Below, piece after piece: positions 39,886 through 51,897 of a stretch of DNA of 64,000 nucleotides; the stretch's first letter is position 1; each line of letters opens with the position of its first letter. The position numbers and the translations under genes were made by a program. Location of the stretch: assembly GCF_000026545.1 (NCBI RefSeq), contig NC_011601.1; one strand, given 5' to 3'. Source of the stretch: Escherichia coli O127:H6 str. E2348/69 (GTDB taxonomy: Bacteria; Pseudomonadota; Gammaproteobacteria; Enterobacterales; Enterobacteriaceae). Under the pieces are notes generated by a model. The model saw nothing but the letters and a program-made list of their open reading frames with translations. It searched no databases and was not told the origin of the DNA.

Positions 39886-40014
39886 TCGCAAAATAGTCGA
39901 TTTAAACAGAGACAGCTGACAACGGTAAAATTGCCTGATGAACTGGGTTTATCAGGCATGAAAACCAACACTTTGTTCGTCATCTGTAAAATAGCGCATC
40001 ATTAAGGAGTACCA

Positions 40015-41268
40015 ATGTGCGAACATCATCATGCCGCGAAGCACATCCTGTGCTCGCAGTGTGACATGCTGGTGGCGTTACCGCGCCTTGAGCATGGTCA
40101 GAAAGCGGCATGTCCCCGGTGTGGCACAACGTTAACCGTGGCGTGGGATGCCCCTCGGCAGCGTCCCACCGCCTATGCGTTGGCTGCACTGTTCATGCTG
40201 TTGCTGTCCAACTTGTTTCCTTTTGTGAATATGAACGTTGCAGGAGTTACCAGTGAAATTACATTACTGGAAATTCCCGGCGTGCTTTTTTTTGAGGACT
40301 ACGCCAGCCTCGGCACCTTTTTCCTGTTGTTTGTGCAACTGGTTCCCGCGTTTTGTCTGATAACCATTCTGTTACTGGTGAATCGCGCGGAATTACCGGT
40401 CCGTTTAAAAGAGCAACTGGCACGGGGGCTTTTTCAACTCAAAACCTGGGGAATGGCGGAGATTTTCCTCGCGGGTGTGCTGGTCAGTTTCGTTAAACTG
40501 ATGGCTTACGGCAGCATTGGTGTCGGCAGCAGCTTTCTCCCCTGGTGTTTATTTTGTGTCCTGCAACTGCGCGCCTTTCAGTGCGTTGATCGTCGCTGGT
40601 TATGGGATGACATCGCCCCGATGCCAGAGCTGCGCCAGCCGCTAAAACCAGGCGTCACGGGGATACGTCAGGGGCTGCGTTCGTGCTCCTGTTGTACGGC
40701 AATCCTTCCTGCTGATGAACCCGTGTGCCCGCGCTGTGGTACTAAAGGGTACGTTCGACGTAGAAACAGCCTGCAATGGACACTCGCGCTGCTTGTTACG
40801 TCCATCATGCTGTATCTTCCGGCTAATATTTTGCCCATCATGGTGACGGATTTATTAGGCTCGAAGATGCCGTCGACGATTCTTGCTGGGGTCATCCTGT
40901 TATGGAGCGAAGGCTCTTATCCCGTCGCTGCGGTGATCTTTCTGGCCAGTATTATGGTGCCAACGTTAAAGATGATCGCCATTGCGTGGCTGTGTTGGGA
41001 TGCCAAAGGACACGGCAAGCGCGACAGTGAAAGAATGCATTTGATTTATGAAGTTGTTGAGTTTGTAGGCCGCTGGTCGATGATTGACGTTTTCGTTATC
41101 GCGGTGCTCTCGGCGCTGGTGCGTATGGGAGGTTTAATGAGTATTTATCCGGCAATGGGTGCATTAATGTTTGCTTTAGTCGTCATAATGACAATGTTTT
41201 CTGCTATGACGTTTGACCCGCGTTTGTCGTGGGATCGTCAACCTGAATCAGAGCATGAGGAGTCCTGA
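40015..41268 (+). CDS. pqiA: Paraquat-inducible membrane protein PqiA (417 aa)
   Basis: 417-aa ORF with two CxxC zinc-ribbon-like motifs and multiple transmembrane segments. Confidence 0.9.
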   Translation: MCEHHHAAKHILCSQCDMLVALPRLEHGQKAACPRCGTTLTVAWDAPRQRPTAYALAALFMLLLSNLFPFVNMNVAGVTSEITLLEIPGVLFFEDYASLGTFFLLFVQLVPAFCLITILLLVNRAELPVRLKEQLARGLFQLKTWGMAEIFLAGVLVSFVKLMAYGSIGVGSSFLPWCLFCVLQLRAFQCVDRRWLWDDIAPMPELRQPLKPGVTGIRQGLRSCSCCTAILPADEPVCPRCGTKGYVRRRNSLQWTLALLVTSIMLYLPANILPIMVTDLLGSKMPSTILAGVILLWSEGSYPVAAVIFLASIMVPTLKMIAIAWLCWDAKGHGKRDSERMHLIYEVVEFVGRWSMIDVFVIAVLSALVRMGGLMSIYPAMGALMFALVVIMTMFSAMTFDPRLSWDRQPESEHEES

Positions 41269-41272
41269 CAGT

Positions 41273-42913
41273 ATGGAATCTAATAATGGGGAAGCCAAAA
41301 TCCAGAAAGTGAAGAACTGGTCTCCCGTGTGGATATTTCCTATCGTCACGGCGCTCATTGGGGCCTGGGTTCTTTTTTATCATTACAGCCATCAGGGACC
41401 GGAAGTGACCCTGATCACCGCGAATGCGGAAGGAATTGAAGGTGGCAAAACCACCATTAAAAGCCGTAGCGTTGACGTCGGCGTGGTTGAAAGCGCCACA
41501 CTGGCTGATGATTTGACGCACGTTGAAATCAAAGCGCGGCTGAATTCCGGTATGGAAAAATTGCTGCATAAAGATACCGTCTTTTGGGTGGTGAAACCGC
41601 AGATTGGTCGAGAAGGGATTAGCGGCCTGGGAACGCTACTGTCTGGGGTTTATATCGAACTGCAGCCAGGCGCGAAAGGCAGCAAAATGGATAAATACGA
41701 TTTGCTGGACTCGCCACCGTTGGCCCCGCCTGATGCGAAAGGTATCCGTGTGCTTCTCGATAGCAAAAAAGCCGGGCAGCTCTCGCCAGGAGATCCGGTG
41801 CTGTTCCGTGGCTATCGGGTAGGTTCGGTTGAAACCAGCACTTTCGATACGCAAAAACGCAATATCAGCTATCAACTGTTCATCAATGCACCTTATGACC
41901 GACTGGTGACCAGCAATGTTCGTTTCTGGAAAGATAGTGGCATTGCGGTTGATCTGACGTCAGCGGGAATGCGTGTGGAGATGGGCTCATTGACAACGCT
42001 GCTTAGTGGCGGTGTCAGCTTTGATGTGCCGGAAGGTCTGGATTTAGGGCAGCCAGTGGCACCGAAAACAGCTTTCGTTTTGTATGATGATCAGAAGAGC
42101 ATTCAGGATTCGTTGTACACCGATCACATTGATTATCTGATGTTCTTTAAAGATTCGGTACGCGGTCTGCAACCGGGAGCTCCGGTAGAATTCCGGGGTA
42201 TTCGCCTGGGTACCGTAAGCAAAGTGCCATTCTTTGCGCCGAATATGCGTCAGACATTTAACGATGATTACCGTATTCCGGTACTGATTCGTATCGAGCC
42301 AGAGCGGCTGAAAATGCAGCTTGGCGAAAATGCGGATGTTGTTGAGCACCTTGGCGAATTGTTGAAACGTGGTTTACGCGGATCGCTGAAAACCGGAAAC
42401 CTGGTCACTGGCGCACTGTATGTTGATCTCGATTTCTATCCAAATACGCCTGCAATAACCGGTATTCGTGAATTTAATGGTTATCAGATTATCCCGACCG
42501 TCAGCGGCGGCCTGGCGCAAATCCAGCAACGACTGATGGAAGCGTTGGATAAGATCAACAAACTGCCACTGAATCCGATGATTGAACAGGCAACCAGTAC
42601 GCTTTCTGAAAGTCAGCGCACAATGAAAAACCTGCAAACGACGCTGGATAGCATGAACAAGATCCTTGCCAGCCAGTCGATGCAGCAGTTACCGACGGAT
42701 ATGCAGTCAACGTTGCGTGAATTGAATCGCAGCATGCAGGGCTTCCAGCCTGGTTCCGCAGCCTACAACAAGATGGTGGCGGATATGCAGCGCCTTGATC
42801 AGGTGTTGCGAGAACTGCAACCGGTGCTGAAAACGCTCAACGAGAAGAGTAACGCGCTGGTATTTGAAGCGAAGGACAAAAAAGATCCAGAGCCGAAGAG
42901 GGCGAAACAATGA
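41273..42913 (+). CDS. pqiB: MCE-domain envelope-spanning protein PqiB (546 aa)
   Basis: ORF-track entry starts at 41213; ATG at 41273 gives MESNNGEAKIQKVKNWSPVWIFPIV (546 aa); overlaps pqiC (ATGA). Confidence 0.9.
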   Translation: MESNNGEAKIQKVKNWSPVWIFPIVTALIGAWVLFYHYSHQGPEVTLITANAEGIEGGKTTIKSRSVDVGVVESATLADDLTHVEIKARLNSGMEKLLHKDTVFWVVKPQIGREGISGLGTLLSGVYIELQPGAKGSKMDKYDLLDSPPLAPPDAKGIRVLLDSKKAGQLSPGDPVLFRGYRVGSVETSTFDTQKRNISYQLFINAPYDRLVTSNVRFWKDSGIAVDLTSAGMRVEMGSLTTLLSGGVSFDVPEGLDLGQPVAPKTAFVLYDDQKSIQDSLYTDHIDYLMFFKDSVRGLQPGAPVEFRGIRLGTVSKVPFFAPNMRQTFNDDYRIPVLIRIEPERLKMQLGENADVVEHLGELLKRGLRGSLKTGNLVTGALYVDLDFYPNTPAITGIREFNGYQIIPTVSGGLAQIQQRLMEALDKINKLPLNPMIEQATSTLSESQRTMKNLQTTLDSMNKILASQSMQQLPTDMQSTLRELNRSMQGFQPGSAAYNKMVADMQRLDQVLRELQPVLKTLNEKSNALVFEAKDKKDPEPKRAKQ

Positions 42914-43473
42914 AAAAGTGGCTAGTGACGATTGCGGCACTCTGGCTGGCCGGATGCAGCTCCGGCGAAATTAATAAAAACTATTACCAGTTACCTGTGG
43001 TGCAGAGCGGTACACAAAGCACCGCCAGCCAGGGTAATCGCCTGTTATGGGTTGAGCAGGTCGCTGTTCCTGACTATCTGGCGGGGAATGGTGTGGTTTA
43101 TCAAACCAGTGATGTGAAGTATGTGATTGCCAACAACAACCTGTGGGCCAGCCCGTTGGATCAACAGTTGCGCAACACCCTGGTTGCCAACCTGAGTACG
43201 CAACTGCCCGGCTGGGTGGTTGCCTCCCAGCCTCTGGGAAGCGCCCAGGACACGCTCAATGTTACCGTCACGGAGTTTAACGGTCGCTATGATGGCAAGG
43301 TCATTGTCAGTGGTGAGTGGCTGTTGAACCACCAGGGACAACTGATCAAACGTCCGTTCCGTCTGGAAGGAGTGCAAACTCAGGATGGTTACGATGAGAT
43401 GGTTAAAGTGCTGGCCAGTGTCTGGAGTCAGGAAGCCGCTTCTATTGCGCAAGAGATAAAGCGTCTACCTTAA
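42910..43473 (+). CDS. pqiC: Outer-membrane lipoprotein PqiC (YmbA, 187 aa)
   Basis: 187-aa ORF with lipobox LAGCSS after the signal peptide. Confidence 0.85.
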   Translation: MKKWLVTIAALWLAGCSSGEINKNYYQLPVVQSGTQSTASQGNRLLWVEQVAVPDYLAGNGVVYQTSDVKYVIANNNLWASPLDQQLRNTLVANLSTQLPGWVVASQPLGSAQDTLNVTVTEFNGRYDGKVIVSGEWLLNHQGQLIKRPFRLEGVQTQDGYDEMVKVLASVWSQEAASIAQEIKRLP

Positions 43474-43495
43474 TCATAAAGATTTGTAAATATAA

Positions 43496-43529
43496 CCGTC
43501 TCCGGTATGTTGCCTGAGGCGGTTTTTTT
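43496..43529 (+). terminator. Rho-independent terminator after pqiC
   Basis: Hairpin ccgtctccggtatgttgcctgaggcgg (43496-43522) followed by ttttttt. Confidence 0.65.
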
Positions 43530-43728
43530 GTTTCTAACGTGCGGAAAAAGTTGTTCCTCTTCACATTTTTTGTACAACCGACATGCCCGTGTAGTTCACA
43601 AATATGACAGTGGCGTGAATTTTGCGCATTGACGGCAGTTATGATTCGCGGTATTGCTTAACTGTGATTGCATATTTAGTAATCACTGTTTTCTTTTCCA
43701 CCAGAAACCAGTATGAGGGAAACGAGGC

Positions 43729-43896
43729 ATGAAGAGACAAAAACGAGATCGCCTGGAACGGGCACATCAACGTGGTTATCAGGCCGGCATCGCCGGACGC
43801 TCAAAAGAAATGTGTCCCTATCAGACGCTGAATCAAAGGTCACAATGGCTGGGAGGCTGGCGAGAAGCCATGGCGGACAGGGTAGTAATGGCCTGA
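43729..43896 (+). CDS. rmf: Ribosome modulation factor Rmf (55 aa)
   Basis: Hand-translated: MKRQKRDRLERAHQRGYQAGIAGRSKEMCPYQTLNQRSQWLGGWREAMADRVVMA; below the 60-aa ORF-track threshold; the track instead shows a spurious 65-aa ORF in another frame. Confidence 0.9.
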   Translation: MKRQKRDRLERAHQRGYQAGIAGRSKEMCPYQTLNQRSQWLGGWREAMADRVVMA

Positions 43897-43914
43897 TTCT
43901 GTCTCTTTAAAAAG

Positions 43915-43937
43915 AAACCTCCGCATTGCGGAGGTTT
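43915..43937. terminator. Bidirectional rho-independent terminator between convergent rmf and fabA
   Basis: Hairpin aaacctccgcattgcggaggttt with T-rich flank on the fabA side (ttaaaaag upstream on +) and cgccttt on the rmf side. Confidence 0.65.
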
Positions 43938-43965
43938 CGCCTTTATATACTCTGTCTGATTAAAA

Positions 43966-44484
43966 TCAGAATGCAGACGTATCCTGGAACAGACCTACTT
44001 TCAGGTCGTTGGCGGTATAGATCAAACGACCATCAACCAGCACTTCGCCATCAGCTAGGCCCATAATCAGACGACGGTTAACTATGCGTTTAAAGTGAAT
44101 ACGATAGGTCACTTTTTTCGCCGTCGGCAGCACCTGGCCTGTGAATTTCACTTCACCTACGCCCAGCGCGCGACCTTTACCTTCGCCGCCCAGCCAGCCG
44201 AGGTAGAACCCTACCAGCTGCCACATTGCGTCCAGGCCCAGGCATCCCGGCATAACCGGATCGCCGATAAAGTGGCATCCGAAGAACCACAGATCCGGAT
44301 TGATATCCAGCTCTGCTTCAACATACCCTTTGTCGAAGTTACCACCCGTTTCGGTCATTTTGACCACACGGTCCATCATCAGCATGTTTGGTGCTGGCAA
44401 TTGCGGGCCTTTAGCGCCAAACAGTTCACCGCGACCAGAGGCAAGAAGGTCTTCTTTTGTATAGGATTCGCGTTTATCTACCAT
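43966..44484 (-). CDS. fabA: 3-hydroxydecanoyl-ACP dehydratase/isomerase FabA (172 aa)
   Basis: ORF-track entry extends to 44682; ATG at 44484 (minus) gives [23 protein letters not shown]; active-site region [13 protein letters not shown]. Confidence 0.95.
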
Positions 44485-44522
44485 GTTCTCTGTAAGCCTT
44501 ATTTTATTGAAGCACGCAGGAT

Positions 44523-44558
44523 AGCTAACACGTGTACGCTGAACAAGTCCGATCAGTT
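44523..44558 (-). promoter_or_regulatory. fabA promoter operators: FabR palindrome (44523-44540) and FadR site (44541-44558)
   Basis: Minus strand reads AACTGATCGGACTTGTTC (FadR-like) directly followed by AGCGTACACGTGTTAGCT (perfect 18-bp palindrome, FabR-like), 40-75 nt upstream of the fabA ATG. Confidence 0.65.
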
Positions 44559-46313
44559 CGGAATAAACCAGTTCAGCCAACGTAATGGCCATGGAAAACG
44601 GTGACGTCCTTCCTGTTGCGATGCTTGTGCGATACGTTCCTGGATGGTTTGCATCAGCGTCGTTTGGCCTTCGCCATCCCACACCAGATTTAATAATAAC
44701 GGCAGTGCGTCAGTCACATCGTCTACTGCCCAGATGGTGAATTTGTCTTCTTCTACCGCTTTCACCAGTTCACTGTGAAGACTTAAATGGCGAACGTTAG
44801 CTGTGGGGATAATGACACCTTGTTTCCCCGTTAACTCACGTTGCTGGCAAATAGCAAAGAAGCCTTCGATTTTCTCATTTAAACCACCGACTGGCTGGGC
44901 GCGACCGAACTGATCGACTGAACCTGTGATAGCGATACTCTGATTCACCGGCACATCGGCGAGGGCGCTTATCAGGGCGCAGAGTTCAGCCATCGAGGCA
45001 CTATCGCCATCCACTTCACTGTATGACTGCTCAAATGTCAGCGATGCTGAGAAGGGGATCTGTTGCTCAAGCTGTAGTTCCGACATCAGGAACGCTTGCA
45101 TGATCATCATCCCTTTTGCATGGATATTGCCGCCAAGCTCCGCTTTGCGTTCGATGTCGGTGAATTCACCATCGCCAATATGTACAACGCAGCTAATGCG
45201 AGAAGGTTCGCCAAAAGCGCGTGGATGACCCGGAAATTCAATGACCGAAAGGGCGTTAATTTGCCCGATGCGTTCGCCTTCGGTTTCAATCAGGATTTGC
45301 TCCTGAAGGATCTCATCCTGCATGCGTTCAGCGAGGAAACCTTCGCGCCATTCACGCTGCTGTAGCATTAAGTTTAGCTGCTCGCCGGAGAAGGTGTCGC
45401 CATCACACAGGGAGGCGACCTCTTGACACTGGCGGAGGATCCACTGCGGGCTAAGCGGAAGTGTTTCTTGTTCACCAGTGTAGCGTGCTGCTTCGCGGAT
45501 AAGCACCGGCCAGGCATCCGCTCCCGGTGCAGGTAAGTGATTATGTCTGGCGGTAAATGTCACCCAGCGACACCACTGGCTTACTGACTCCGCATCGACA
45601 ATCTGCAGAGTATCTTCAAATTCGCTATAAATAGTCTGCTCTGAAAGCTCTGGTTCTATCTCCTGGAAATCAGCCAATGATTCGCGTTCGCCTACCAGAA
45701 TGACTTTCAGCTTCAATGGCATCGAAGGCACAGAGACGGGGAGAGGGCGCGACTCATCAAACGCAACCCAGTCAAAACGCTCGCGGTTAACGATATTTTT
45801 CAGCCGCATCCACAGCAGAGGTTGCGCCAGCAGTGTACGCAAAGAGATGATGAGAATACCGCCATTTGCCTGATGCACCAGACCAGGCTGCAGGGTAATA
45901 TCGCCATTAAACTGACGCAGGCAGCCAAAGAGTTGCTCTGCTTCTACCCAGTCGGCAGCGACAACTTGCGTTAAAGTCGCAAAATTATCATCTGCACTCA
46001 CTGCGTGACGTAAGCGGATGGTGTGGCCGGAAACCTCATAGTGACCGCCCACCAGTTGGCCTGCATCGCTTTGTAGCGTACGCGCGGCATCAGCAATAAG
46101 ATTCAGATACTCAGACTCTTCCGGGGCCTTCGCCAGCATAAAAGAGGAGGATGCTCGCGTATGCAGCAACTGCTCCAGCGCAAATTGCAGTCGCGGTTGA
46201 GTATCACTGAATAAAGGATCGTTTTCGTCAATCAAATGTGGCTGAGCAAATATTTCCTGATAGCTATCGGTATCAGGAACCAGGTCACGCCATGCAAGTT
46301 TCGTAATGGTCAA
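44553..46313 (-). CDS. ycbZ: Lon-like protease YcbZ (586 aa)
   Basis: 586-aa ORF; C-terminal Lon protease domain with putative Ser-Lys dyad ([17 protein letters not shown] ... GGLNEKIEG); no canonical Walker A seen in the translation. Confidence 0.9.
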
Positions 46314-46498
46314 AGTTGATGTTTTTTAGTCTGTTGTCAAAGCCGCGATTATACCGTAACCGGCACTGCAGCACACGTAGAAAGCAACGACAATACTCCT
46401 GGCATGGGCGTTAAAGCTCACAGGATGGAGATTCTTTTCTTCACTGGCCTAAAAAGCTGATATTCTGTAAAGAGTTACACGGTAACATTGAGATCGCT

Positions 46499-46951
46499 AT
46501 GAAATATCAACAACTTGAAAATCTTGAAAGCGGTTGGAAATGGAAGTATCTGGTGAAGAAGCACCGCGAAGGGGAGTTAATCACCCGTTACATAGAAGCC
46601 AGTGCCGCCCAGGAAGCCGTCGATGAGTTGCTCTCGCTGGAAAATGAACCCGTGCTGGTAAATGGTTGGATTGACAAGCATATGAATCCGGAACTGGTCA
46701 ATCGCATGAAGCAGACCATTCGGGCCAGACGGAAGCGCCATTTTAATGCAGAACACCAGCATACGCGCAAAAAATCGATCGATCTGGAATTTATCGTCTG
46801 GCAACGTCTGGCTGGCCTTGCGCAGCGTCGCGGTAAAACGCTTTCTGAAACGATTGTTCAGCTGATTGAAGATGCGGAAAACAAAGAGAAATACGCGAAT
46901 AAAATGTCTTCTTTGAAGCAGGATCTGCAGGCATTGCTGGGTAAGGAATAA
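46499..46951 (+). CDS. matP: Ter macrodomain organizer MatP (150 aa)
   Basis: 150-aa ORF starting [26 protein letters not shown]. Confidence 0.9.
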
Positions 46952-46983
46952 CTGTCAAAAGTCAGTTCAATTTACTAAAGGCG

Positions 46984-47014
46984 AAAAAAAAACCCCGCAG
47001 CTGCGGGGTTTTTC
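46984..47014. terminator. Bidirectional rho-independent terminator between convergent matP and ompA
   Basis: Hairpin ccccgcagctgcgggg (46993-47008) flanked by A9 upstream and T5 downstream. Confidence 0.85.
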
Positions 47015-47028
47015 TACCAGACGAGAAC

Positions 47029-48069
47029 TTAAGCCTGCGGCTGAGTTACAACGTCTTTGATGCCTTTAACTTCGATCTCTACGCGACGATCCGGAGCCAG
47101 GCAATCGATCAGTGCAGCACGCTGTTTCACGTTGTCACAGGTGTTGCCAGTAACCGGGTTGGATTCGCCCATACCACGTGCGGAGATTTTGTCTGCCGGG
47201 ATACCTTTAGAGATCAGGTAATCAACAACGGACTGAGCACGACGCTCGGACAGAGCCTGGTTATAAGCGTCAGAACCGATGCGGTCAGTGTAACCCAGAA
47301 CAACTACGGAACCGTCTTTCGGATCCAGGTTGCTCAGCTGGCTGTACAGCTGATCCAGAGCAGCCTGACCTTCCGGTTTCAGGGTTGCTTTGTTGAAGGT
47401 GAACAGAACGTCAGACTTCAGAGTGAAGTGCTTGGTCTGTACTTCCGGTGCCGGAGCTGGAGCCGGAGCAACTACTGGAGCTACTTCGCCCTGACCGAAA
47501 CGGTAGGAAACACCCAGGCTCAGCATGCCGTTGTCCGGACGAGTGCCGATGGTGTGTGCGTCACCGATGTTGTTGGTCCACTGGTATTCCAGACGGGTAG
47601 CGATTTCAGGAGTGATCGCATACTCAACACCGCCAGCGAAGACCGGAGAAACGCCGGTGTCGTGGTTTTTACCATAAACGTTGGATTTAGTGTCTGCACG
47701 CCATACCATACCACCCAGACGAGTGTATACGTCCAGATCGTCAGTGATTGGGTAACCCAGTTTAGCGGTCAGCTGAACGCCCTGAGCTTTATATGCACCG
47801 TTTTCAACGCTGCCTTTGTATGGCATACGACCTAACCAGTCATAACCCATTTCAAAGCCAACATACGGGTTAACCTGGTAACCACCAAAAGCACCAGCGC
47901 CCAGTTGGTTTTCATGGGTCGGACCATTGTTAGGAATAAAACCAGTGTCATGGTACTGGGACCAGCCCAGTTTAGCACCAGTGTACCAGGTGTTATCTTT
48001 CGGAGCGGCCTGCGCTACGGTAGCGAAACCAGCCAGTGCCACTGCAATCGCGATAGCTGTCTTTTTCAT
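47029..48069 (-). CDS. ompA: Outer membrane protein A OmpA (346-aa precursor)
   Basis: ORF-track entry extends to 48156; ATG at 48069 (minus) gives [21 protein letters not shown] signal peptide; APAPAPAP hinge; C-terminal OmpA-like peptidoglycan-binding domain. Confidence 0.96.
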
Positions 48070-48202
48070 TTTTTGCGCCTCGTTATCATCCAAAATACGC
48101 CATGAATATCTCCAACGAGATAACACGGTTAAATCCTTCACCGGGGATCTGCTCAATATTAACTCTACCGATATCTTCGGCTTATGCCGAGCACCCCTGG
48201 CG
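48070..48202 (-). promoter_or_regulatory. ompA long 5' untranslated leader (approximate extent)
   Basis: Non-coding stretch directly upstream of the ompA ATG; leader length (~133 nt) from memory of E. coli ompA, not measurable from sequence alone. Confidence 0.4.
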
Positions 48203-48424
48203 ATGTAAAGTCTACAACGTAGTTGAAAACTTACAAGTGTGAACTCCGTCAGGCATATGAAAAAAAAGTCTTGTATAAGGTACGTTTAATCTTTTTTGTC
48301 AGCGACAATTTACAGAAGAAAATCGCGGAAACCGCTTCAGACAAGCCTCCGCAAGGAAAATTAGTCACGACTGAAAGCATTGGCTGGGCGATAAAAAAAG
48401 TTCCAGGATTAATCCTAAATTTAC

Positions 48425-48934
48425 TTAATGATACAAATTAGAATGAATTTTTAGCCCGGAAAGTTGTCTCGTTGCGTGAGAGGATGCGCTTACCGGACGC
48501 ATAATAAACCCCATAGCGTTACCTTCATTTGCCGCATCAACAAGTTCAGCATGCTCTTCTGCAGTCAAATCATCTGCCAACCAACCGATCACCACGCTGT
48601 AATTGCCCGTGCGTAAAGCGCGAACCATTGACTCCACGGTGTGGCAAGGGGAGAGCTGGCTAATCTGCATTACTTTCGTTAAGGGTAGCCCAGATGCCTG
48701 AACCCATTCGCGACTCAGTTTTTGTTGCGGTGTTAACCAGAGTTGCCAGCGCGATTGCTGACCGAGTTGCTGTAACAATGGCAACAGTAGAAGTTGCGTC
48801 ATCATGGGCTGATCTTCGCGATAGACAACTTCACTGATAAGCCCGGCTGTAGTGTTTTCCGTAGAGACACGCGCAATTTTGCTTGCTGCGGATGAGAACG
48901 ACGAATCACGATGTGCATAGCCTGAAGTGTACAT
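48425..48934 (-). CDS. sulA: SOS cell-division inhibitor SulA (169 aa)
   Basis: ORF-track entry extends to 48991; ATG at 48934 (minus) gives [19 protein letters not shown]; LexA box immediately upstream. Confidence 0.95.
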
Positions 48935-48955
48935 AATCAATCCAGCCCTGTGAGT

Positions 48956-48975
48956 TACTGTATGAATATACAGTA
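48956..48975 (-). promoter_or_regulatory. LexA (SOS) box in the sulA promoter
   Basis: Perfect palindrome TACTGTATGAATATACAGTA (CTGT-N8-ACAG consensus), 22-41 nt upstream of the sulA ATG. Confidence 0.9.
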
Positions 48976-49151
48976 TATCCAGTGACGACAAAGATCAACC
49001 CTATTTTCGGAAAGAGCCTCGCAAATTTTGTCGTTGGTGGCGGGAAAACATAAATTAATCTTGCCCCTTAAGAATAAGTTGCCTATTTTCGTAGTTAACG
49101 GATCCGTTAATGTGAATCATTCTTTTATGTTATGATTTTAAAAGGAATTTT

Positions 49152-49781
49152 ATGAAAAGCCTCTCCTATAAGCGGATCTATAAATCACAAGAATACCTGG
49201 CAACGTTGGGCACAATTGAATACCGATCATTGTTTGGTAGTTACAGCCTGACCGTTGACGACACGGTGTTTGCGATGGTTTCTGATGGTGAGTTGTATCT
49301 TCGGGCTTGTGAGCAAAGTGCACAGTACTGTGTAAAACATCCGCCTGTCTGGCTGACATATAAAAAGTGTGGCCGATCCGTTACCCTCAATTACTATCGA
49401 GTTGATGAAAGTCTATGGCGAAATCAACTGAAGCTGGTGCGTCTGTCGAAATATTCTCTCGATGCAGCGCTGAAAGAGAAAAGCACGCGCAATACCCGGG
49501 AAAGACTGAAAGATTTGCCCAATATGTCTTTTCATCTGGAAGCGATTCTCGGGGAGGTGGGGATTAAGGATGTACGGGCGTTACGTATACTTGGGGCAAA
49601 AATGTGTTGGTTGCGACTGCGGCAGCAAAACTGTCTGGTGACAGAAAAGATTCTGTTTATGCTTGAAGGGGCCATTATCGGCATTCATGAAGCTGCGCTC
49701 CCGGTGGCACGCCGCCAGGAGCTTGCAGAATGGGCTGACTCTCTTACGCCAAAACAGGAGTTTCCTGCGGAACTTGAGTAA
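49152..49781 (+). CDS. sxy: Competence regulator Sxy/TfoX (209 aa)
   Basis: 209-aa ORF starting MKSLSYKRIYKSQEYLATLGTIEYRSLFG (TfoX N- and C-domains); 3' end overlaps the convergent yccS. Confidence 0.9.
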   Translation: MKSLSYKRIYKSQEYLATLGTIEYRSLFGSYSLTVDDTVFAMVSDGELYLRACEQSAQYCVKHPPVWLTYKKCGRSVTLNYYRVDESLWRNQLKLVRLSKYSLDAALKEKSTRNTRERLKDLPNMSFHLEAILGEVGIKDVRALRILGAKMCWLRLRQQNCLVTEKILFMLEGAIIGIHEAALPVARRQELAEWADSLTPKQEFPAELE

Positions 49782-51897
49782 TCTGGCGTTGCAGACGACC
49801 AATCTCTGGCAGTAATGCAATCAATAACCCAACTTGTTGTACGACCAGAGGTTCTTTGCTGTCTGCCCGTGGTTCAAGTTGCTGCATCCGCTGTTTCAGG
49901 CCAGCTAATGCCTGATTGACGCGTTCTTCATCAGCAGGTTGATGATGTAGCGCGTCATCAACATAGCAAACTGCGTCATCAAGAAACGCCAGAATTTCAG
50001 GATTAGTTAACTGCTCCCGGTGAGCACCGAGGGCTGAGATATAGCTGGTAAACGTATGGTTAAGGCACAGCAACCGAAACGCGGCTTCGCGAATTTGCGG
50101 GGTAACGTTCGGTTCGCTGGACATATTTGATACCACCGACGCCAGTTCAGCATCACGGTTGTGTGCATCGCGGCGGGCAATACGATACGCCAGACGGTTA
50201 TCACGCCCCTGATGGTATTGCTCCAGTATGGCATCGAGATACCGACAGTTGGCCTCGGTGGCGCGTTCGAGCATTCGCGGCAGATTGCGAAACTTCCAGT
50301 CAGGCCAGATGTAGCTCACTGCAGCCCACGCAATGGCACAACCAATCAGCGTATCGATTACGCGAGGTAACGCCACTTCAAAACCTTCACCCAGCAAGTT
50401 GAAACACAGTAGCACCAAAAGTGTGATGAACATCGTTGCATGGGCGTATTGCACGTTACGGAAGGCAAAAAAGAGCACGCCGGTAATAACCAGCAGCACC
50501 AGCTGCCCTTCCAGTGATGGCACAAACCACAGCACAGGAATGCCAATTGCGATACCTACCAGCGTACCAATAATCCTTAACTTCAGGCGGTGGCGCGTGG
50601 CGTTATAGTTTGGCTGGCAGACAAACAAACTTGTCAGCAAGATCCAATACCCGTGATGCATTCCGGTTATCTGAATGATGGCGTAGCCGAAGCACAACAC
50701 CAGCGACATTCTTACTGCATGACGGAAGAGGGCGGATTCCGGCGTGAAGTGACGGCTAAGACGCAGCCAGATATCACTCAATCCGTGCGGGCTGTCATCA
50801 GCGAGCTCATTTTCGTCATTATTATGGGGCAGTGCCTGGGCCTGTTCTGATTCAATTGTTGCCAGTTGGGCATCAATGGCACGTAAATTGTTCAGTAAAA
50901 ATCCCAGTGTTTTGAGTAAATCAGCAGGAGCGCCGTTATCGCGCATCCGCTCCAGCGCAGCATCAATATGCGTAAAAGCGCGCTCAAAATGCGGATCATG
51001 TTGATAAGGCTGACGCAGCAAAATACAGCGTGACAGTTGCTGGCACGCCTGGCCCTGCATCGACATCAGCCGCTGAAAACGGAACAGCACGTCGCTGTGG
51101 CGAAAATGTTCACGCAATGTTTGATATTGAATATGAGAAGAGCTGGCACGCTCGTGAATATCCTGTGCGACAAAGTAATAATGCAGTGTGCGACGCGTTC
51201 CCCGTTGACCACGATCGCCACGTAAGCGGGTCAGCAGCGAGAGTTTCGTCTGATTCAATGTCGCCATCAGCTGACCGTTGGCGAGAGCCAAATCGTACAG
51301 CGGTGCCTGGCTTTCATCTTCAATATCAGGATCAAACATGCGCGACTTGAGCTCAAGATAACGCGCCAGTTGTTCATAGCAACGCGCCAGGTTGTCCTGC
51401 AGCGGGCGGACCGGGAACAGCAGATGACCAATAAGTGTCAGGACGTTGTACCAGACGGCACCGGCCAGAAGATACATCGGCTGCTGATACCAGTGCTCAT
51501 ACAGTGATGTTCCCAACATAGTGTAAATGGCGATCAGCAATGCACCGAAGGCAATTGTTGCATAGCGTTGACCCAGACCGCCGAGCAAAATGAAGCCGCT
51601 GGTAGAGAGCGTTAAGCCAATCGCAAATAGCCAGGGCCAGGGAAACAGCAATTCTACTGAGGCTGAGGCGATAAAAAAGCAGAACAGCGTAATGATGAGG
51701 TTACGCAAACGTCCCGCCAGTCGGTCATCGAGATCGGTCAGCGCCGCTGCCACCATCCCCAGCGTCAGCGGAATCGTCAGTTTTACATCACCCAGCCACC
51801 ACGGAAACGCTGTGGTTCCACAAAGCGCAATAAAAATACGCGCGTAATACAGCCAGGCGCTGTTCCAGGTATAGCGTTTGAGCAAAGGACTTAGCAT
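49744..51897 (-). CDS. yccS: Inner membrane protein YccS (about 717 aa)
   Basis: Large polytopic membrane ORF; the track gives 720 aa (start 51906, MAFMLSP); recalled protein starts at MLSPLLKRYTWN (51897). The true start is uncertain by 9 nt. Confidence 0.8.
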   Translation of the reverse strand: MLSPLLKRYTWNSAWLYYARIFIALCGTTAFPWWLGDVKLTIPLTLGMVAAALTDLDDRLAGRLRNLIITLFCFFIASASVELLFPWPWLFAIGLTLSTSGFILLGGLGQRYATIAFGALLIAIYTMLGTSLYEHWYQQPMYLLAGAVWYNVLTLIGHLLFPVRPLQDNLARCYEQLARYLELKSRMFDPDIEDESQAPLYDLALANGQLMATLNQTKLSLLTRLRGDRGQRGTRRTLHYYFVAQDIHERASSSHIQYQTLREHFRHSDVLFRFQRLMSMQGQACQQLSRCILLRQPYQHDPHFERAFTHIDAALERMRDNGAPADLLKTLGFLLNNLRAIDAQLATIESEQAQALPHNNDENELADDSPHGLSDIWLRLSRHFTPESALFRHAVRMSLVLCFGYAIIQITGMHHGYWILLTSLFVCQPNYNATRHRLKLRIIGTLVGIAIGIPVLWFVPSLEGQLVLLVITGVLFFAFRNVQYAHATMFITLLVLLCFNLLGEGFEVALPRVIDTLIGCAIAWAAVSYIWPDWKFRNLPRMLERATEANCRYLDAILEQYHQGRDNRLAYRIARRDAHNRDAELASVVSNMSSEPNVTPQIREAAFRLLCLNHTFTSYISALGAHREQLTNPEILAFLDDAVCYVDDALHHQPADEERVNQALAGLKQRMQQLEPRADSKEPLVVQQVGLLIALLPEIGRLQRQITQVPQETPVLA

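Follow-up and report, generated by a model that had tools for sequence, protein, structure and literature searches.

YcbZ of Escherichia coli, a Lon-type serine protease with a fossil ATPase module and the features of a reduced LonC

In Escherichia coli, ycbZ is a core gene encoding a Lon-type serine protease that carries a fossil ATPase module. By analogy with its closest solved relative, YcbZ is probably a soluble, ATP-independent, LonC-like serine protease. The gene was analyzed in the window, a stretch of 64,000 nucleotides from E. coli O127:H6 str. E2348/69 (contig NC_011601.1), where positions 44553-46313 have 100% DNA identity to ycbZ of that strain and coincide exactly with the RefSeq CDS, whose product label is ‘AAA family ATPase’ (Table 1). 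An earlier note, made from the sequence alone, had named this 586-aa reading frame YcbZ and left its strand unstated; the name holds, and the gene lies on the minus strand. A pseudogene or a mis-called reading frame is ruled out: among 5426 complete E. coli genomes, 5425 carry the gene over at least 80% of its extent, and its homologs align end to end. A ycbZ-type gene is also kept in endosymbionts with genomes of 0.59-1.08 Mb. On inspection of the sequence no obvious Shine-Dalgarno precedes the TTG start, a scan for sigma-70 promoters around ycbZ found none against 2.7 expected by chance, and Rfam gave no match in positions 40000-50000 of the window.

Table 1. Features of ycbZ and its downstream neighbor, in coordinates of the window
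Feature	Coordinates	Strand	Basis
fabA, 68 nt downstream of ycbZ	43966..44484	-	RefSeq, neighborhood comparison, PMC4161252
ycbZ CDS, 586 codons and TGA stop, TTG start	44553..46313	-	ORF list, DNA identity, RefSeq
C-terminal tail, aa 548-586, two predicted helices and an aromatic/basic end	44556..44672	-	AF2, sequence, PMC8848927
Lon (S16) protease domain, aa 344-547	44673..45284	-	Pfam, PDB alignments
LonC-specific insertion 2, aa 516-520, LVKAV, helix alpha5	44754..44768	-	Alignments; definition PMC3391209
LonC-specific insertion 1, aa 490-496, QQRELTG after Cys489	44826..44846	-	Alignments; definition PMC3391209
Catalytic Lys481 codon	44871..44873	-	Alignments, conservation
Catalytic Ser438 codon, within G436-D437-S438-A439 (LonB/LonC-type ‘GDS’)	45000..45002	-	Alignments, conservation
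Alpha-helical lid of the AAA-like module, aa ~241-336	45306..45593	-	AF2, PDB alignment
Pseudo-AAA+ alpha/beta domain, aa ~57-232, with Pfam AAA_32 on aa 140-225	45618..46145	-	Pfam, AF2, Foldseek
Degenerate Walker B position, aa 151-158, GGILIISL	45840..45863	-	Family alignment
Short beta-rich segment, aa 81-142, at the LonC helical-hairpin site	45888..46073	-	AF2, gap lengths, Pfam
Degenerate Walker A position, aa 58-72	46098..46142	-	Family alignment
N-terminal helical region before the AAA-like core, aa 1-56	46146..46313	-	AF2 secondary structure

The protease assignment is carried by the C-terminal region of the protein, which matches Pfam Lon_C (E = 1.5e-10; 41.4 bits, cutoff 21.1) and, among its PDB matches, the protease domains of LonA, LonB and LonC. 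Two motifs had been matched by eye in the earlier note to the catalytic serine and lysine of Lon, a 17-residue stretch (aa 435-451, window 44961-45011) and GGLNEKIEG (aa 476-484, window 44862-44888), and alignments place both of them on the Lon active site. In BLASTP they align with DGPSAGIAMC and GGLKEKL of LonA from the same genome, setting Ser438 and Lys481 opposite Ser679 and Lys722, the established LonA dyad; a PDB alignment sets the same two residues opposite Ser582 and Lys625 of Meiothermus taiwanensis LonC (MtaLonC), the best solved relative by sequence (E = 3.7e-56, YcbZ aa 140-547 against 296-691). Judged from these sequence comparisons, the similarity of YcbZ to the Lon family is far beyond chance. 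In an alignment of 136 diverse relatives G436, D437, S438 and K481 are invariant, as are GDSA, T463 and K400 around the dyad, and a column-wise motif count found both the catalytic Ser and the catalytic Lys in 133 of 133 sequences. Such invariance speaks against YcbZ being a pseudo-protease or chaperone-like scaffold with no need of catalysis, a reading prompted by the chaperone activity of heptameric MtaLonC (PMC13069640) and by the many MEROPS S16 members that are non-peptidase homologues (PMC9569914). [quoted passage not shown]

Within the Lon proteases, the active-site region of YcbZ carries the marks of LonC, an ATP-independent type of Lon-like protease known since 2012, for which crystal and cryo-EM structures exist. 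An Asp and not a Pro precedes the catalytic Ser (G436-D437-S438), which is the LonC or GDS-type criterion (PMC9569914). Both LonC-specific insertions are recognizable as well. Insertion 1 has been defined as CX3GLX(G/E) in the loop after the catalytic-Lys helix (MtaLonC K634-G640) and insertion 2 as phi-X2-A-phi in helix alpha5 (MtaLonC V660-V664; PMC3391209). YcbZ C489-QQR-E-L-T-G496 aligns ungapped with the first and faces a 7-residue gap in E. coli LonA; the Gly of the consensus is Glu in E. coli, and Cys489 is at least 90% conserved. L516-V-K-A-V520 likewise aligns ungapped with the second, opposite a 4-residue gap in LonA.

Other Lon types share less with YcbZ. E. coli LonA has a homologous protease domain with the catalytic Ser and Lys aligned (38% identity over 76 residues), but it differs by a large N-terminal domain, GPPGVGKT at residue 356, a functional AAA+ motor and GPS in place of GDS, and it lacks the 7- and 4-5-residue insertions present in YcbZ. 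Archaeal LonB (Thermococcus onnurineus, TonLonB, PDB 3K1J) resembles YcbZ in joining AAA and protease domains without an N-terminal domain and in having Asp before the catalytic Ser, but has intact Walker A and B motifs, ATPase activity and a transmembrane insertion in its alpha/beta domain, and is without both LonC insertions. LonB membership was rejected: the insertion site of YcbZ is a short beta-rich segment, the Walker motifs are absent, and the NCBIfam LonB model stays at 85 bits, below its cutoff of 517. BrxL, and with it a role in defense, was rejected as well (TIGR02653 E = 0.21, 9.9 bits against a cutoff of 628; housekeeping neighbors matP, fabA and rmf).

The ATPase module of YcbZ, to go by sequence and model, is degenerate and not absent, because the whole AAA-like alpha/beta and lid fold is predicted at high confidence and superposes on both MtaLonC and TonLonB. 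The AlphaFold2 monomer model, built on the family alignment (mean pLDDT 95, pTM 0.91), shows an AAA-like alpha/beta domain, a lid and the protease. In Foldseek its best fold match is to MtaLonC crystal chains, full-length, at TM 0.81-0.84, followed by TM 0.71 to archaeal TonLonB and TM ~0.35 to LonA, over the protease part only. Sequence and fold comparison with LonB- and LonC-type proteins, which the earlier note had proposed along with profile searches and structure prediction, thus put LonC closest. The same note had left the ATPase module as ‘degenerate or absent’; the first word stands and the second does not. In the model the scaffold of beta1, P-loop and alpha1 is kept, together with the Walker B strand and the lid, and the residues that bind and hydrolyze ATP are gone.

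At the level of motifs, the remark that YcbZ has no recognizable P-loop was correct: none of GxxxxGK[ST], [AG]xxxxGK[ST], GK[ST] or G.{4}G[KR] occurs anywhere in its 586 residues. In the family alignment AKAPEESEY (KAPEESEY at the P-loop position itself) occupies the columns of GPxGxGK/R in the longer relatives, and aa 58-72 as a whole face their YNLFVLGPxGxGK/Rx, so that the three Gly and the Lys of Walker A are all lost. GGILIISL stands at the column of GGYLILDA, the Walker B-like motif of MtaLonC (GGYLILDA or GYLILDA; PMC3391209), with Ser157 in place of the MtaLonC Asp and Ser157-Leu158 at the aligned position of the acidic pair of hhhhDE. Two regex matches to hhhhD[DE] in YcbZ (aa 182 and aa 527) both lie outside the Walker B position. 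Profile searches found no canonical AAA+ P-loop: Pfam AAA_32 (‘LonB-like AAA domain’) matches partially, on aa 140-225 (E = 7.5e-14), generic P-loop NTPase profiles in Pfam match weakly in long relatives and not in YcbZ, and no NCBIfam model reaches its cutoff. W168, K172 and R277 of the module are at least 90% conserved even in P-loop-less forms, and given this conservation the pseudo-AAA module may have another kind of ligand-binding role.

These results bear directly on whether YcbZ could be a true ATP-dependent protease, acting through a non-canonical nucleotide site or through a partner unfoldase in trans. The AAA-like fold is kept, some conserved basic residues are left in the module, and the literature and databases name the protein a ‘putative ATP-dependent protease’ (PMC13232886, PMC9508795). 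However, YcbZ has no Walker A glycines or Lys, no Walker B Asp and no catalytic Glu, it matches no P-loop NTPase profile, and the NCBIfam models all fall below cutoff. Its closest characterized relatives keep a GK motif and still have no ATPase activity (PMC3391209). In the neighborhoods compared, ycbZ has no conserved unfoldase gene beside it, and ATP dependence in either form is barely credible.

LonC (MEROPS S16.007; MtaLonC, PDB 4FW9, 4FWD and 8K8V; Thermus thermophilus TTC1975) shares with YcbZ the GDS-type dyad, both insertions, an AAA-like alpha/beta and lid module without functional Walker motifs, and a soluble form without the LonA N-domain or the LonB membrane anchor. The two nevertheless differ, at an identity of ~25% and with a mesophilic gamma-proteobacterium as the host of YcbZ. 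In MtaLonC a type-specific helical-hairpin extension serves substrate recognition and chaperone activity (PMC13069640). YcbZ is without this extension because only 88 residues separate its P-loop and Walker B positions, where MtaLonC has 254; the site is predicted as beta strands by AF2 and gives no match to Pfam LonC_helical. Absent too are GPPSLGKH, the Walker A-like motif of MtaLonC that was proposed to bind nucleotide (PMC3391209), and the Walker B-like Asp. By sequence and by analogy, YcbZ is LonC-like in its protease domain and mechanism, but it appears reduced and does not count as a typical LonC, because the protease-domain features of LonC are in place and the hairpin and GPPSLGKH are missing.

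The reduction can be followed across the family. From 3066 sequences at E ≤ 0.001, 150 representatives were taken, and 137 near-full-length ones were aligned. All length variation in the family sits between the P-loop and Walker B positions, which are ~300 residues apart in the 780-845-aa forms, ~200 in MtaLonC-like forms (MtaLonC itself being measured from K59 to D313), 150-167 in the ~650-aa forms and 56-71 in the shortest forms; in LonA the distance is 60 residues (PMC9569914). Across ten representatives scanned, Pfam LonC_helical scores 40-64 bits in 714-832-aa relatives and 18-23 bits, under its cutoff, in 656-662-aa relatives, and it has no match in the three short-form relatives. Motif decay goes hand in hand with shrinkage of the insertion across 133 sequences. 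With insertions of more than 180 residues, GxxGxG[K/R] is present in 58 of 76 sequences and an acidic Walker B position in 67; between 111 and 180 residues the counts fall to 1 and 7 of 20, and at 110 residues or fewer to 0 and 2 of 37. The longer relatives (640-720 aa, and 780-845 aa with AAA_32, LonC_helical and Lon_C) keep 150-300-aa insertions, unlike YcbZ, and the longest have kept GxxGxG[K/R] and the Walker B Asp, YcbZ standing at the reduced end of the series. The catalytic Glu that would follow Walker B is missing from all 133 sequences, and the whole family is therefore probably hydrolysis-dead; YcbZ-type proteins, to judge from their motifs, are probably also without residues able to bind nucleotide.

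In a neighbor-joining tree of aa 140-547, rooted on a long form and without support values, 34 of the 37 short forms and YcbZ make up one pure clade, which is nested among the 150-167-residue forms in an arrangement that is only indicative; midpoint rooting was uninformative, and the clade structure came with the long-form root. Named short-form members come from Enterobacterales, Pasteurellaceae and insect endosymbionts, and named intermediate forms from Aeromonadaceae. The Aeromonadaceae-type proteins (640-720 aa) belong to the same family, are the nearest outgroup of YcbZ in this tree and are also encoded upstream of fabA. By these comparisons YcbZ belongs to a reduced gamma-proteobacterial lineage that is usually found directly upstream of fabA.

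For the mechanism, the best guide is MtaLonC, which has no ATPase activity, degrades unfolded proteins independently of ATP (PMC3391209) and forms ring assemblies (PMC13069640). MtaLonC is also inhibited by bortezomib and MG262, and it binds nucleotide (ATPgammaS/ADP) with K of ~1e5 per M. By this analogy YcbZ, in which the Ser438-Lys481 Lon S16 domain is joined to an AAA+-like module complete in its parts but catalytically dead, would assemble into rings like those of MtaLonC and TTC1975, and the pseudo-AAA tier could act as an oligomerization scaffold and as the entry gate to a sequestered proteolytic chamber. Because YcbZ has no motor, it would cleave only chains that are unfolded beforehand or contain flexible stretches, and the missing GK remnant suggests that it is insensitive to nucleotide. 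Without hairpin and GK remnant, substrate choice must come from elsewhere, and candidates are partner proteins or one of two parts of YcbZ itself, the beta-rich segment of aa 81-142 and the C-terminal tail with its aromatic/basic end. Published genetics point to translation-linked substrates, the weakest and purely inferred step of the scheme. Retention of ycbZ by selection, in E. coli and in small endosymbiont genomes, counts in favor of this scheme. Against this, the mechanism leans on MtaLonC at ~25% identity, and the analogy may fail at substrate selection because YcbZ lacks the substrate-recognition extension of MtaLonC.

Several published phenotypes connect ycbZ with translation. A ycbZ mutant has raised stop-codon readthrough that a plasmid rescues, according to the reports that cite it (PMC9508795, PMC8848927), and a role in translation and ribosome biogenesis is cited elsewhere (PMC7686311). 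Two independent evolution studies found ycbZ mutations repeatedly selected by erythromycin; these mutations are loss-of-function, and a reconstructed ycbZ inactivation mutant resists erythromycin, EDTA and other compounds (PMC7686311, PMC4079197). In a two-hybrid screen, contacts with RNase E were reported for full-length YcbZ and for a fragment of aa 565-586 (PMC13232886). For DgcE, one candidate substrate, turnover was unaffected by ycbZ deletion (PMC6510439). The end of the protein also contains a ribosome-arrest site, Pro585-Asn586 (PMC8848927). Of the features of the tail, only its aromatic/basic composition was clade-specific; the hydrophobic moment of the E. coli tail (muH 0.49), computed as a test for an amphipathic membrane helix, was not above that of shuffles.

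The gene neighborhood adds a further constraint. By RNA-seq, ycbZ and fabA form an operon that also has internal and fabA-proximal promoters (PMC4161252). Of the 9 lineages examined, 7 have fabA directly downstream on the same strand. Among them are loci whose flanks otherwise differ (L003, L008) and the Aeromonadaceae-type genes of intermediate length (L011, L012); a metagenomic locus (L005) and an endosymbiont (L004) depart from the pattern. At the one locus examined for a MtaLonC-like gene, of 717 aa, fabA is not adjacent. The linkage may simply go back to an inherited order of genes, without any coupling of function. In reading ycbZ mutants, polar effects on fabA have to be controlled, and the erythromycin and EDTA phenotypes could be partly such effects on the co-transcribed gene.

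Taken further, these data raise the tentative idea that YcbZ is a site-specific regulatory or processing protease and no bulk degrader of unfolded proteins, with one or a few defined partners in translation, RNase E function or membrane-lipid homeostasis, to which its C-terminal tail would recruit it. That YcbZ has lost the extension for generic substrate binding and chaperoning fits this idea, as do the specific phenotypes of readthrough and of erythromycin and EDTA resistance, the first of them taken from citing reports (PMC7686311, PMC4079197, PMC9508795), the RNase E signals of the whole protein and of its last residues, the recurrent ycbZ-fabA pair and the clade-specific tail. However, the two-hybrid screen was called biased by its own authors (PMC13232886), the synteny may reflect no more than inherited order, and Lon-family chambers are usually processive. 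The idea is possible but improbable as it stands. A wider and equally speculative proposal, doubtful in its full form, starts from the soluble ATP-independent protease and sees in it a nucleotide-blind ‘minimal LonC’ of gamma-proteobacteria. This lineage would have shed the hairpin stepwise (~300, 160, 88 and 58 residues) together with its last nucleotide-binding residues, gained an aromatic/basic tail and kept co-transcription with fabA. The product would be a tail-targeted quality-control protease at the ribosome, RNase E or the membrane, whose loss raises macrolide tolerance and whose tail doubles as a translation-arrest peptide tuning its own synthesis.

YcbZ had already been described as a Lon homolog without ATPase activity (PMC6510439), and the earlier note, right in its observation and its interpretation, restated this published view. 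What is added here is a residue-level demonstration that the ATPase module of YcbZ is a fossil and not absent, and the recognition of YcbZ as a hairpin-less, fully P-loop-less reduced form. The names in circulation for it, ‘AAA family ATPase’ in RefSeq and the often repeated ‘putative ATP-dependent protease’, are misleading. Among the core proteases of E. coli, YcbZ is one of those still uncharacterized; evolution experiments on erythromycin resistance and translation-fidelity screens have turned it up repeatedly, and because of these phenotypes it is a reasonable target for characterization. Once it is seen as an ATP-independent, LonC-like protease that lacks the usual arm for substrate recognition, the choice of worthwhile experiments becomes narrower.

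RefSeq names the product of ycbZ (WP_000156499.1) "AAA family ATPase", and several papers label YcbZ a "putative ATP-dependent protease". The RefSeq name is misleading, because Walker A, the Walker B acid, and the catalytic Glu are all missing from YcbZ and no NCBIfam model matches it at cutoff. Within the pseudo-AAA module, the AAA-like alpha/beta and lid part that has lost its P-loop, W168, K172, and R277 are conserved at 90% or above in every length class of the family, including those without a P-loop. Candidate roles for these three residues are subunit interface, phosphate binding, and binding of another ligand.

The order Lon-like gene followed by fabA is kept in Enterobacterales, Pasteurellaceae, and Aeromonadaceae-type and metagenomic lineages (the window and the relatives' neighborhoods L002, L003, L006, L008, L011, and L012). 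In the same loci the pair is often flanked by a convergent rmf and a divergent matP, and across the loci compared it persists despite differing outer flanks. In E. coli, ycbZ and fabA are co-transcribed (PMC4161252); phenotypes of ycbZ mutants, e.g., resistance to erythromycin and EDTA, could be confounded by polarity on fabA. The convergent gap between fabA and rmf holds a GC-rich hairpin, perfectly paired over 11 bp and with T-runs on each strand; it looks like a bidirectional intrinsic terminator.

Coordinates of ycbZ, its neighbors, and the features discussed
Feature	Window position	Strand
rmf (flanking gene)	43729-43896	
fabA/rmf hairpin	43914-43938	
fabA (neighbor of ycbZ)	43966-44484	
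ycbZ	44553-46313	minus
ycbZ 3′ end (last 15 codons)	44553-44600	minus
YcbZ C-terminal region, aa 548-586	44556-44672	minus
W168, K172, R277	~45481-45812	minus
ycbZ start codon and preceding sequence	46311-46353	minus
matP (flanking gene)	46499-46951	

Translation of ycbZ starts at a TTG codon, preceded by ...AACAGACTAAAAAACATCAACT. No Shine-Dalgarno sequence is recognizable within 40 nt 5′ of this TTG, and a simple scan found no consensus sigma-70 promoter for the gene; this would fit weak expression. At the other end, the reading frame closes with ...CGT TGG CTG AAC TGG TTT ATT CCG AAC TGA. Ribosomes arrest strongly at this C-terminal end of YcbZ, when Pro585 occupies the P site and Asn586 the A site, and the arrest has been ascribed to slow accommodation of tRNA-Asn, a queuosine-modified tRNA (PMC8848927). 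YcbZ protein is increased approximately 2-fold in a tgt mutant, which lacks queuosine (PMC9508795).

The C-terminal region was also compared with the C-termini of relatives. In the short, YcbZ-type forms, the last 15 residues are aromatic and basic (mean of 2.8 W/F/Y, net charge +2.6), whereas those of the 780-845-aa relatives carry a mean of 0.4 W/F/Y and a net charge of -0.3. When the tail of the E. coli protein was assessed as a candidate amphipathic membrane helix, its hydrophobic moment (muH 0.49) did not exceed that of shuffled sequences. A two-hybrid screen with RNase E recovered a YcbZ fragment spanning aa 565-586 (PMC13232886).

YcbZ-type genes are also kept in two insect endosymbionts, Ca. 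Dasytiphilus stammeri (P0123, at locus L004; 586-kb genome) and Ca. Erwinia haradaeae (P0127; 1.08 Mb genome), in both cases with the catalytic GDSA motif intact. Retention in such strongly reduced genomes suggests a housekeeping role for the protein, although ycbZ can be deleted in E. coli.
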